DNA of 16,935 nucleotides. It comes from a virus. The stretch lies in the UHGV virus genome UHGV-0107614; one strand, 5' to 3'. Made by a program: the position numbers. Position 1 is the stretch's first letter, and every line of letters begins with the position of its first letter. This document shows positions 1 through 3,000 of this stretch, one piece after another.

Positions 1-3000
1 GGTGTTCCGGGGCCGGTTGGTCCGGCAGGTCCTGCGGGTAAAACGGGGCCACGAGGTTTGCAGGGAGAAACAGGAAGACAGGGCCCGACAGGTCCACAGG
101 GCCCGACAGGTGAACCCGGACCACAGGGACCACAAGGGCCAACCGGAAGGCTGGTACCCGGGGAAATTTACAGCATCGGAACATACATTATTGCCGCAAT
201 AATCCCGTATGCAACCGACATCGGCAGAACCTATCAGCCAGGAGAAACTGTACAGGGTTCACGCCTTAAGCGATGCGCCATAATCAAAGATACAAGCGGG
301 AACTATATGAAAGCTAACACCGATGGCATTGACGGCAAACTATCCTCAGTTCCGGGCTCATGGATGGTGTGTAATGAAATTACGTCGACAAATGACAATG
401 AAGGCATCGGGCTGTTCCAGCGCGCATACTGACAGACAGGAGATGACATGAATGTGGAAAAAAATAAGCAATCCGCAATGGGCAGATAAAGATCACACTG
501 CTGTGAATTGCATGGTGAAGTTTGAGCACATTGAGCAGGCGGTTCCTTTCACTGCAACAGCCAGCGATACCGAAGCATACGGGCGGGATATTTATGCCGC
601 TTGTCAGAAAGGAGAGGCCGGTGAAATTGCAGAATATGTACAGCCATCCATCAGCCCGGAAAAAGCCAGAGAACTCAAAACCGCCGGGATCAACGCCTGG
701 CGTAATGCGATGGAAGCGGCGAACTACACGTTTGAGCACAATGGGCGTAAATGGGACTACGGGAAGTCAACGCAGACGCGTCTTGAGCCGTCGGTGGCGG
801 CAGCGAAAGCGGGGAAACTGCCGGAGGCGTTTTTCTGGACGGATGCGGACAATAATGACGTACCGATGGACGCTGAAACACTGATTGCTCTGAGTGCTGC
901 TGCAGAGCAGGCGATGTTTACCAAAGGTCTGGAAATTCATGTCAGACAGCGCACGATGAAAAAAGAGATTGAAGCGCTGGGTGATGCGGAAGCTATACTG
1001 GCGTATAAGGTCGGCATGGCTGACAGGTGAAAAAAAGAGGGGCGCTCCAGCCCCTTGCTACAAAGCTATGGCTAAATAAAGAATACTCAGGTCGAGGAAA
1101 TAATCTGGCAATGATAATTAAAGGAGATGCAACGGCCTCCTTCACCCCTGTCAAAGATAAAAAACTGGGGAGTGCGTGCTCCCCGAGAGCATGATACTTG
1201 TGGTTGATAGTTATTTTTATCCGGCGACAAAGATATTGAGATGAGGGCGCGGATAGTGGTGCTTTTTTATAAGCAACAGAATGGCTGCATAAAAATAGAG
1301 CAAATAAAACAATTATCAAATACAGAATTTTCGTAGACTGAGGGGTTGCTGAAAATAATTTAGTGCGTCCTTCAATGGTTATCAGATTGTGCTGATGTAA
1401 ACAGTTAAGCACAATTTGATTATTTGACTTTCTTCTTTTTGTGACTAACTTCACAATTAAATATGTAACCGTATACAAATTGTTGATGAATAAAGAGACA
1501 GCATAAGTGGCAGGCCAGTCGTAATGCGGATATCCCTTCGCGAACGTGATATCACCGACGTTATAGTAAGGAAATTCCGAAAAACTTTATATTAAAATTC
1601 GGAATTTCTTCAAGAGTAAGCTCATGAGAGCGGCGAGACATCAGATTTTCTTTATATATCCGACGTTGAACTGTTTTATTTGTATACAGATAATTTTATA
1701 GGGTATACCACATGAGCAAGAAATTTACAAAGACTATTCTTTCATCTGCTGTTGCCGGTCTGTTGTTGGTGAGTGGTGGTGCTATGGCTGAAATAGTTAC
1801 ACATAAGATAAGTGATAAATACTATTTTCAACTCAATACTGAAAATAATCATGCTTCTATTAGAGATAACAGCAATAAAATGGTGATTGGTCCATTTGAT
1901 GTAAACACAGGGAAGGTCACAAGTGTAAACATGACGGAAGTTATGGCTAAGTTAAAAAATGCCCCAAAAGATCCTGATGGAAGTATTCAAAGTTCATTCA
2001 ATAAATATCAGAATGAGTTAGTGTACTCTATTTATGTCCCTCAGTTATCACCTGATAATATTGGTCGAATTAATGAAAAAGAAGTGGAAAGTGTAAAATC
2101 ATTAATTGAAAAATCCAAGAATGTTATAACAACTAAAAATGCTGATTTGTATAACTCTATTGTTATGAATGGAGGAAGTGCAAATATCGCTCTTGATTTA
2201 ATTAGTAGAGGGGACTCTAGTCAATCTCAGATTTATGCAGATACAGCTAAAAAAATTAATGATATTAATGAAGGCAAAGCTGTCGGTACCTCCTTTGCTT
2301 TAGACAGAGAAGGTAAGATTACCTTAAACGAAAGAGAAAGTTCAGGTGACCGTGAGTCTGTGAAAAATGTGGTTGCGGGTCTTGTTGATGATACAACAGT
2401 GTCTGTTGCTGAAGATGGCTCTCTGACCATGGATCGCAGCACATCTAATACCAAGCGAGTGAATGAGGCACTGGTCGATCTGGATAAATCAGTGAAAGAC
2501 AGAACCACTGTTGGTATGAATTCAGACGGCAGCCTGACCACTGCTGAGGGAGCTGCAAAAACTGTTGCGGTAAGTGAAGGTCTTGTTTCCCTGTCTGGTC
2601 GTACTGACCGTATTGATGCAGCAGTTGGTGCCATTGATGGCCGTGTCACCCGTAACACGCAATCCATTGAGAAAAACAGCAAGGCGATTGCAGCCAATAC
2701 CCGTACGCTGCAGCAACATTCAGCACGTCTGGACAGCCAGCAGCGCCAGATTAATGAAAACCATAAGGAAATGAAACGAGCAGCAGCACAGTCTGCGGCC
2801 CTGACAGGTCTGTTCCAGCCGTACAGTGTGGGTAAATTCAACGCCACGGCAGCGGTTGGTGGTTACAGCGACCAGCAGGCACTGGCAGTGGGTGTGGGTT
2901 ACCGCTTCAACGAGCAGACCGCAGCGAAAGCAGGCGTGGCATTCAGTGATGGCGATGCCTCCTGGAATGTTGGTGTGAACTTCGAGTTTTAATTGCTGAA

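Follow-up and report, generated by a model that had tools for sequence, protein, structure and literature searches.

A predicted Eib-family trimeric autotransporter encoded as a moron in a 933W-type lambdoid prophage

Eib proteins of Escherichia coli, found in commensal as well as Shiga-toxin-producing strains, bind antibodies by the "wrong" end, and they play a part in serum resistance, aggregation and virulence. EibF of strain ECOR-2 (UniProt Q8VW24, 459 aa) reportedly binds both IgA and IgG, to go by the title of the 2001 report of Sandt & Hill. Members of the family bind IgG Fc, and some of them also bind IgA (PMC12511318). EibC, EibD and EibE are characterized by a classical N-terminal domain (NTD), a YadA-like left-handed beta-roll head, a neck and a right-handed coiled coil, while EibA has neither the beta-roll head nor the neck (PMC7568254). 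In EibG, Fc binding was abolished by the D391A substitution, and a protein with nearly the whole passenger deleted still bound Fc, the region C-terminal to the saddle being sufficient; moreover, EibG, ClaA and ClaB each conferred serum resistance (PMC13534694). Cla, Yal and EibG, which we compared by description, belong, like the protein described below, to one diversifying pool of YadA-anchored adhesins in E. coli, with head functions modularly separate from Fc binding (PMC13534694). As for expression, a passage in PMC7649339, citing Sandt et al. 2002, states that enhanced Eib production depends on ibrB, located elsewhere in the genome, and is low without it; a passage in PMC4352079 describes EibG as poorly expressed outside static culture.

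We analysed a window of 16,935 nucleotides (the whole of the stretch taken from UHGV virus genome UHGV-0107614), in which ORF 1712-2992 very probably specifies an E. coli Eib-family protein, a type Vc trimeric autotransporter adhesin, carried as a prophage moron and predicted from its sequence to bind IgG Fc. The product is an uncharacterised Eib variant within a familiar family, and no new kind of system. The exact protein is already deposited in NCBI under the generic name "YadA C-terminal domain-containing protein".

Layout of the gene and its product

ORF 1712-2992 is intact, begins with ATG and encodes a product of 426 aa. The features of the gene and its surroundings are as follows.

1..432, plus strand: 3' end of a tail fibre gene with collagen-like G-x-y repeats (Pfam Collagen repeat), which starts outside the window
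452..1030, plus strand: tail-fibre-assembly-type gene (DUF4376; PF14301, E 8e-20; PHROG tail fibre families), ORF-191 homologue
1031..1711, plus strand: AT-rich non-coding spacer (G+C 30-38%)
1569..1610, plus strand: inverted repeat with 13-bp arms (dG -13.8 kcal/mol, z -3.3)
1666..1694, plus strand: candidate sigma-70 promoter, TTGAAC-17-GATAAT (consensus scan, 9/12 matches)
1678..1696, plus strand: 19-nt "eib box" ATTTGTATACAGATAATTT, 15 nt before the start codon, invariant upstream of nearly all eib genes
1712..1789, plus strand: signal peptide, aa 1-26 (sequence features, conserved MSKKFTK start; AlphaFold pLDDT <50)
1790..2281, plus strand: N-terminal globular head domain of EibF type, aa 27-190 (AlphaFold pLDDT 85-94; EibF NTD, 35% identity)
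2282..2503, plus strand: two predicted saddle-like beta-hairpin + helix units, U1 (aa 191-227) and U2 (aa 228-264)
2504..2611, plus strand: saddle minidomain, as in EibD, aa 265-300 (aligned to EibD 2xqh)
2612..2812, plus strand: left-handed coiled-coil stalk, aa 301-367 (identity to EibA/EibF; EibD 2xzr)
2813..2992, plus strand: YadA-type membrane anchor, aa 368-426, and stop codon (PF03895, 2lme, Foldseek)
3016..3050, plus strand: intrinsic terminator of eib, hairpin + T-run (dG -27 kcal/mol, z -6.3)
3081..3551, plus strand: ORF-156, conserved companion of every eib gene
3551..3733, plus strand: ORF-60, last gene of the cassette (phrog_9340, E 1e-29; orf-60A/C/D in the P-Eib records)

The signal peptide, stalk and YadA-type C-terminal anchor on which the original prediction of an Eib-type trimeric autotransporter was based were all present. 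Direct reading of the sequence revealed a basic n-region, a hydrophobic core and an A-x-A cleavage motif (AMA|E) in the signal peptide, and the alignment showed that the MSKKFTK start is conserved in all Eibs. The anchor matched the Pfam family YadA_anchor (PF03895) with an E-value of 4e-16 and 59.3 bits (cut-off 22.7), as well as the YadA anchor structure 2lme (E 1.6e-18); the YadA, Hia and AtaA anchors matched it in Foldseek, and four beta-strands were predicted at residues 376-424 in the AlphaFold model. An unbroken helix was predicted for residues 289-367, and residues 294-357 match the crystallised trimeric coiled coil of EibD (2xzr) at every position. By analogy with YadA and EibD, the 26-residue signal peptide would direct Sec export, the last 59 residues of each chain would supply four strands of a 12-stranded beta-barrel in the outer membrane, and the passenger would be threaded outwards and trimerise into a stalk displaying the N-terminal head.

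The predicted similarity to known Eibs was also borne out at the C-terminal end, where 160-200 residues are 79-100% identical to EibA, EibC, EibD, EibE and EibF. Residues 301-426 share 97-100% identity with EibA, EibC, EibD and EibF; the stalk within them (residues 301-367) is 100% identical to that of EibA and EibF and 99% identical to that of EibC/D, whose anchor is 100% identical, whereas the EibA anchor is 97% identical. The saddle is less conserved, with 68-78% identity to EibA/C/D/E/F (76% for EibC/D and 78% for EibF). As for the passenger, the expected resemblance held for the saddle and stalk, but not for the N-terminal head, which is of another type and related only to that of EibF.

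Indeed, the N-terminal 240 aa are not a classical EibA/C/D/E passenger. The NTD, beta-roll head, neck and right-handed coiled coil of EibC/D/E are all absent: no PF05658 head repeat was found in the protein with Pfam, and the alignment has a gap where EibC/D/E carry the head. EibG combines the NTD with a beta-roll head, and this head is likewise lacking here. Since EibA has no beta-roll head either, this head, found in EibC/D/E/G, is not Eib-defining. No profile similarity was detected between the new head and the NTDs of EibA/C/D/E (hhalign probability 0.7%), sequence identity to the EibA head being only 21%, and Foldseek found no PDB match for its fold. Profile matches to the head were restricted to 32 representative clusters among 1.84 billion proteins.

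The closest relative over the head is EibF, which has the same type of head (alignable pattern ISDxYY..NNH..VIGPFD..TG), also lacks the beta-roll, and is identical over the left-handed stalk and anchor; overall identity is 54%. The two proteins differ in the middle region (25% identity), where EibF carries coiled-coil repeats with two KYTDQK motifs, whereas the window protein has no such motif and carries the two hairpin-helix units instead. EibA, too, has a coiled coil at this position. A strand-strand-helix pattern was predicted three times in the protein (U1, U2 and the saddle), with a confidence of 55-76 for the hairpin units in a model that represents a monomer of an obligately trimeric class. 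Compared with the true saddle, U2 scored 60 (z 8.4, 0/2000 shuffles) while U1 was marginal (z 1.8).

Prophage context and expression signals

It had been proposed that the gene directly follows tail fibre and assembly genes, and the two genes just upstream fit this known eib cassette order. The end of the tail fibre gene matches an NCTC9112 tail fibre protein (tblastn), and the gene at 452-1030 is 76% identical to orf-191A and near-identical over the C-terminal 115 aa. The order Tfa(ORF-191), eib, ORF-156, ORF-60, L0124-like gene is the one deposited for prophage P-EibD, and the gene order of P-EibA/C/E agrees with it up to ORF-156. ORF-156 is possibly a degenerate receiver with a LuxR-type HTH. 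The window copy is 97% identical to the ORF-156 downstream of EibA. P-EibA is a lambda-like prophage in which the cassette is flanked by J, lom and eaaA. A lom/ail homologue was observed 5 kb downstream in the prophage of the window.

In contrast, the eib cassette is absent from 933W and phiSTEC1589-Stx1c, where the slot is empty or differently filled. The gap in homology between Tfa and L0124 measures 543 bp in phiSTEC1589-Stx1c (L008 3337-3880) versus 2886 bp in the window (1027-3913), and homology to 933W resumes at window position 3689. The G+C content is 28-38% over nt 1200-2400 and about 50-56% in the flanks, with a step near nt 2400. The gene is a moron of a short-tailed lambdoid prophage of 933W type, which resembles Shiga-toxin phages; it is inserted between the tail-fibre assembly gene and the L0124 homologue, and it may be expressed from the lysogen. 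As in lom/bor-like lambdoid morons, an additional outer-membrane-protein gene lies in the late region, with its own terminator and a deviant base composition, and is missing in relatives; the protein family is different, however, and independent expression from the prophage is putative for ORF 1712-2992.

The last ~410 bp of the spacer (1300-1711) correspond to the conserved eibA-type upstream region. We found 71 copies of segment 1300-1735 (436 bp) in 27 of 5426 complete E. coli genomes, all at least 95.7% identical and all preceding a YadA-C-terminal gene. The inverted repeat at 1569-1610 lies where the depositors marked a stem_loop upstream of eibA, and P-EibA/C/D/E all have such an annotation at the equivalent place. 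EibC/D/E have a different kind of upstream region and share only the 19-nt box, which is identical in the eibA-type and eibC/D/E-type regions. One copy of this box was found in each of 15 eib-bearing loci, with zero chance matches expected, and it was absent from two eib-less phages; in IMG/VR, 14 of the 16 exact matches precede an Eib-like ORF starting with MSKK(F/I)TK. Small ORFs in the spacer looked spurious. No Rfam match was found in the window or the spacer, even at a permissive threshold.

The original prediction also gave the gene its own candidate promoter and terminator. The terminator was well supported: the hairpin and T-run at 3016-3050 follow the gene, none of 200 shuffles folded as well, and a stem_loop is annotated at the same place after eibA/C/D/E. 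For the promoter, there is one sigma-70-like site, whose -10-like hexamer falls inside the invariant box, and which would give a leader of only ~10 nt; however, the region contained four sigma-70-like sites against 5.6 in shuffled sequence, a number not above chance, so that the promoter scan alone is no evidence.

Mosaic origin and distribution of the allele

Compared segment by segment, the locus is a three-part mosaic: its 5' flank is of eibA type, its 3' part is of eibD type, and the AT-rich passenger between them is unique. At the DNA level, positions 689-1767, which include the upstream 1 kb and the start of the signal peptide, are 96.7% identical to P-EibA of ECOR-9 (EibA, AAF63234, 392 aa), and positions 2496-4276 are 97.0% identical to P-EibD; since this second segment takes in orf-156, orf-60 and the L0124-like gene, the two also share their prophage context. 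The allele probably arose by recombination between conserved flanks, joining an eibA-type 5' region and signal peptide to an eibD-type 3' half, with the passenger between them as the swapped module. Segment-wise comparison also showed that eib modules recombine independently among alleles, and UCPROB-001 carries a different eib allele in the same prophage backbone.

The allele itself was always found in the same context. It is rare, being carried by 5 of the 5426 complete genomes, including those of a urinary isolate and a frigatebird isolate; NCTC9112 is one natural carrier. The protein sequence was 100% identical in at least 58 contigs that derive from different strains and hosts.

A broader and rather unlikely reading is that the eib slot is a recombination-driven diversification cassette, in which the head sets a non-Ig specificity and ORF-156 is a dedicated LuxR-like regulator. 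The homology arms would then be the invariant upstream region, 19-nt box and signal-peptide start on one side, and the invariant stalk and anchor on the other; the head and hairpin modules would be swapped among co-resident prophages (median 3 copies per genome). The EibF-type head, mounted on three tandem saddle-like rotators, might provide self-recognition or ligand specificity, and ORF-156, always linked to eib, would regulate the cassette.

Predicted function and alternative explanations

The stalk carries the RTDRIDAA motif at aa 297-304, in which D302-A303 (nt 2615-2620) aligns with D387-Y388 of EibD; the D-A version of this Fc motif is shared with EibA. D302 corresponds to the aspartate (D391) needed for non-immune binding of IgG Fc in EibG. 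Because the membrane-proximal stalk is letter-for-letter that of EibA and EibF, D302 included, the product is predicted to bind IgG Fc. A KYTDQK-type segment, common to EibC, EibD and EibF, was absent from the protein, and IgA binding is therefore not predicted. By analogy with other Eibs and their relatives, the product is also predicted to promote serum resistance and autoaggregation.

Three other explanations were weighed against that of an Eib-type Fc-binding adhesin. The protein could belong to the wider Eib-like group and serve in adhesion or autoaggregation without binding Ig, like Cla, with a role set by its variable head. Consistent with this, the saddle and the RTDRID motif are both missing from 34 of the 124 full-length family proteins fetched, including the UCPROB-001 allele from the same prophage backbone. 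This reading is nevertheless very unlikely for the allele studied here, which keeps RTDRIDAA with D302 in a stalk whose sequence is exactly that of EibA and EibF, both proven IgG binders, and the EibG region C-terminal to the saddle is enough for Fc binding. Moreover, Cla is described as lacking the Fc-binding aspartate and occurring in other genomic contexts (PMC13534694), whereas the window protein has D302 and the canonical eib context and was therefore not filed there. A place in the virion, as an adhesin on the tail that ends in a YadA-like domain of the kind annotated in some phages, would agree with the position of eib among tail genes, with weak matches to PHROG "tail" families and with weak tblastn matches (27-32% identity, C-terminal part) in phiEco32-like phages and large Salmonella phages, where the genes hit are labelled "tail protein" or "agglutinating adhesin". 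We rejected this reading as extremely improbable, given the cleavable Sec signal peptide, the membrane-barrel anchor, the gene's own terminator, its deviant G+C and its absence from the otherwise collinear functional phage 933W, together with near-identity to proteins shown in the bacterial outer membrane.

A third possibility, that of an intact gene which stays silent in a decaying prophage and has no effect on the phenotype of the host, is unlikely too. Frameshifts appear to interrupt two of the prophage's structural genes within the window, in the regions of nt 9812-9836 and 14440-14470, so the prophage may be decaying; the AT-rich upstream and 5' coding region would be typical of xenogeneically silenced DNA, and eib expression reportedly needs ibrB or special growth conditions. 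However, the identity of the protein across strains and hosts and the conservation of its upstream region in all 71 copies fit recent spread or purifying selection, not decay.

An Eib-family name is warranted in place of the generic pipeline label under which the protein is deposited; the known picture of Eib proteins is unchanged. Passenger-based PCR typing for eibA-G would probably miss this allele. The 19-nt box and the ORF-156 companion offer cheap handles for studying eib regulation, and the allele illustrates how extensively the surface-exposed part of the family can be swapped against a constant background of Fc-binding stalk, anchor and expression signals.

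Domain architecture of the eib product and its relation to known Eibs

The eib gene in the window adds an uncharacterised member to the Eib family, sits in the canonical prophage slot and is ordinary in kind. Beyond the original prediction, it was characterised by an EibF-type head with duplicated saddle-like units, a three-part mosaic structure and an invariant 19-nt box. The predicted open reading frame is real (1712-2992, + strand, ATG start, 426 codons), and its product begins, on reading the sequence, with the expected Sec-type leader. In an AlphaFold model built from a 40-sequence alignment (mean pLDDT 70.7), this signal peptide had a pLDDT below 50, as expected of a cleaved leader, and was followed by these parts:

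Residues 28-190: globular head of five beta-strands, then helices (pLDDT 85-94)
Residues 194-227: strand-strand-helix unit 1
Residues 229-262: strand-strand-helix unit 2
Residues 265-300: strand-strand-helix unit 3, the "saddle" of EibD
After unit 3: one long helix ending at residue 367, then four anchor strands

Unit 2 was a significant sequence repeat of the saddle (score 60, z 8.4, 0 of 2000 shuffles), and the likeness of unit 1 to it was only marginal (z 1.8). The YadA-type anchor that had been proposed was recovered as the sole Pfam domain, PF03895 (residues 368-426, E 4e-16; score 59.3 bits, cut-off 22.7). A YadA-like beta-roll head was absent, with no PF05658 match in Pfam and a gap in alignment A1; EibA also has none (PMC7568254; PMC12511318). 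The PDB sequence search returned four matches: two EibD fragments (2xqh, E 1.4e-29; 2xzr, E 5e-27), the YadA anchor (2lme, E 1.6e-18), and a chimeric vaccine construct (6tik, E 1.7e-06), matched over a segment described as "putative adhesin/invasin". Residues 294-357 were identical to the crystallised coiled coil of 2xzr and lie in the long predicted helix, which bears out the proposed stalk.

Identity to each relative was scored per segment of a pairwise alignment.

Table. Identity of the product to known Eibs (head 27-190, middle 191-263, saddle 264-300, stalk 301-367, anchor 368-426)
Relative; signal peptide; head; middle; saddle; left-handed stalk; anchor
EibA; 54%; 21%; 19%; 68%; 100%; 97%
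EibC/D; 69%; 25-26%; 21%; 76%; 99%; 100%
EibE; 69%; 23%; 23%; 76%; 69%; 86%
EibF; 77%; 35%; 25%; 78%; 100%; 100%

Similarity to the Eibs as a group covered the saddle, stalk and anchor; the head had no detectable relation to those of EibA/C/D/E and aligned convincingly only to that of EibF (35%). EibF (54% identity overall) is the sole characterised Eib with a convincingly alignable head, and the related protein P0098 fell, by cluster look-up, in the cluster of UniProt Q8VW24, "Immunoglobulin-binding protein EibF". By tblastn against phage records, matches to EibA, EibC, EibD, and EibE from the ECOR-9 prophages were confined to the C-terminal 43-58% of the protein, and the head-family profile showed no similarity to the EibA/C/D/E head profile (hhalign probability 0.7%). 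Among 1.84 billion proteins, the head-family profile matched only 32 representative clusters; nearly all comprised short proteins with a YadA anchor, in which the head immediately follows the signal peptide. Two proteins from that search, P0266 and P0254, shared this order of head, hairpins, stalk and anchor but had different signal peptides (MKFIMAKNVLAMAV... and MKSVMTKNILAAAV...), and may not be from E. coli.

Mosaic origin and distribution of the allele

At the DNA level, the eib locus is a clear three-part mosaic. Nucleotides 689-1767, spanning the 3' part of the tail-fibre-assembly-type gene (Tfa), the entire spacer and the first 18 codons, were 96.7% identical to P-EibA, the prophage carrying eibA, and nucleotides 2496-4276 were 97.0% identical to P-EibD, whereas the intervening 728 bp (G+C about 33%) matched neither of the two. 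Comparison of related proteins indicates that other alleles combine the same modules in different ways by recombination: P0079 was 100% identical from the N-terminus through the saddle, with an EibE-type stalk (69%) and anchor (88%), and P0032 had an identical saddle with a different head (23%). E. coli strain UCPROB-001 shares the prophage backbone (94% identity up to nt 1774, 98% from nt 2707 on); its 371-aa allele (L009 2327-3442), which has neither the saddle nor the RTDRID Fc-binding motif, is a candidate natural non-Ig-binding relative at the identical locus.

In GCA_021914765.1 (L016 1-4599), a lambda J-type tail tip gene and a lambda-stf-type fibre precede the identical eib allele, as in P-EibA, and podovirus-type genes lie downstream. 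This arrangement points to movement of the tail fibre-Tfa-eib block between lambdoid prophages of siphovirus and podovirus type.

Diversity within the family is high, the full protein retrieving 2174 clusters at E <= 1e-20. An identical protein has been deposited in NCBI under the name "YadA C-terminal domain-containing protein", on at least 58 contigs and always in the same cassette context; the allele was present in 5 of 5426 complete E. coli genomes.

Prophage context and candidate expression signals

As predicted, eib directly follows tail fibre and assembly genes, namely a tail fibre gene with collagen repeats, of which the window holds the end, and a DUF4376 gene (76% identity to ORF-191A). 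Downstream neighbours of eib were ORF-156 (97% identity to orf-156A) and ORF-60, together with lom and counterparts of 933W L0124-L0134. This places the prophage among the 933W-type short-tailed lambdoid phages, in the context deposited for P-EibD. The eib slot is variable: in phiSTEC1589-Stx1c, a related phage without eib there, the Tfa homology stops at window nt 1027 and homology restarts at 3913, with only 543 bp between in that phage, and 933W homology restarts at 3689. G+C content was 28-38% across nt 1200-2400, versus 50-56% on both sides. The gene also has the strong terminator of its own that had been proposed, 3' of the stop codon (dG -27 kcal/mol, z -6.3), and depositors annotated stem-loops at the equivalent place after eibA/C/D/E.

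Other genes observed downstream of eib were:

7809-8543 (+): second outer-membrane moron, Ail/Lom family, weakly similar to the Rck "resistance to complement killing" model
8775-8915 (+): Hok/Gef type I toxin gene, after lom; no Sok-like RNA found with Rfam
9465-10105: L0130 homologue, with one frame change at 9812-9836
12164 to beyond 16935: giant LPD38-domain virion protein gene, with one frame change at 14440-14470

The frame changes, relative to NCTC9112, a natural carrier of an eib allele, reflect either prophage decay or assembly indel errors; eib, ORF-156, L0124, and the tail-tip genes were intact. The lom gene was just 74% identical to that of NCTC9112, and its neighbours 97-100%.

For the proposed promoter there was one promoter-like site upstream (1666-1694), which was not statistically meaningful alone (4 such sites in the region, 5.6 expected). 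The strongest sequence evidence for an eib-specific expression signal, still putative, came from a 19-nt block, ATTTGTATACAGATAATTT (1678-1696, + strand), 15 nt 5' of the ATG. Inside it are a palindrome, TGTATACA, and the GATAAT that forms the -10-like hexamer of the candidate promoter. The block was invariant even where eibC/D/E-type upstream regions were otherwise about 50% diverged, and occurred once per locus in all 15 eib-bearing loci fetched and in neither of two eib-less phages; chance occurrence is not expected. Among 16 exact matches in IMG/VR, 14 preceded an MSKK(F/I)TK Eib-like ORF by 15-16 nt, with assorted passenger types. The block may serve as a promoter or leader element across the family. 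The 436 bp upstream segment that contains it (1300-1735) had 71 copies in 27 complete E. coli genomes (median three per genome), each at least 95.7% identical and each before a YadA-C-terminal gene (71/71).

Enhancement of Eib expression by ibrB (PMC7649339, citing Sandt et al. 2002) and poor expression of EibG outside static culture (PMC4352079) lead us to treat expression from the lysogen as a hypothesis, dependent on host and conditions.

Three minus-strand terminator-like hairpins with T-runs were also observed in the Tfa-eib spacer (1038-1055, 1119-1144, and 1167-1184); neither a convincing gene nor an Rfam RNA lies on that strand for them to terminate, and they may end an antisense or divergent transcript. 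A 114-bp spacer segment, present in NCTC9112 and phage PhiR5_2 (L001 15640-15755, L006 8428-8543) and missing in the window (1252-1254) and P-EibA, has a GC-rich hairpin of its own and contains the ATACAGAATTTTCGTA motif for a second time.

Predicted immunoglobulin binding and serum resistance

The protein probably binds IgG Fc; from residue 301 to the C-terminus it was 97-100% identical to Eibs with proven IgG binding. The Fc motif is RTDRIDYA (D387-Y388) in EibD and RTDRIDAA (D302-A303) here, the D-A version being shared with EibA. EibF and EibC/D carry coiled-coil segments with KYTDQK motifs in the middle region, whereas this protein has none. IgA binding by EibC/D/F resides in that region, and the protein is therefore predicted to bind IgG only.

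In a 2026 study, EibG lost Fc binding on D391A substitution but kept it after deletion of nearly the whole passenger, saddle included, and Cla proteins, which are without the Fc-binding Asp, did not bind Fc (PMC13534694). The "D378" printed there for EibD is taken to be a typographical slip for D387, since the two EibD residues of the motif are given as aligning with EibG D391-A392. Because EibG, ClaA, and ClaB all confer serum resistance (PMC13534694), the protein would, by analogy, likely confer it too, whether or not it binds immunoglobulin.
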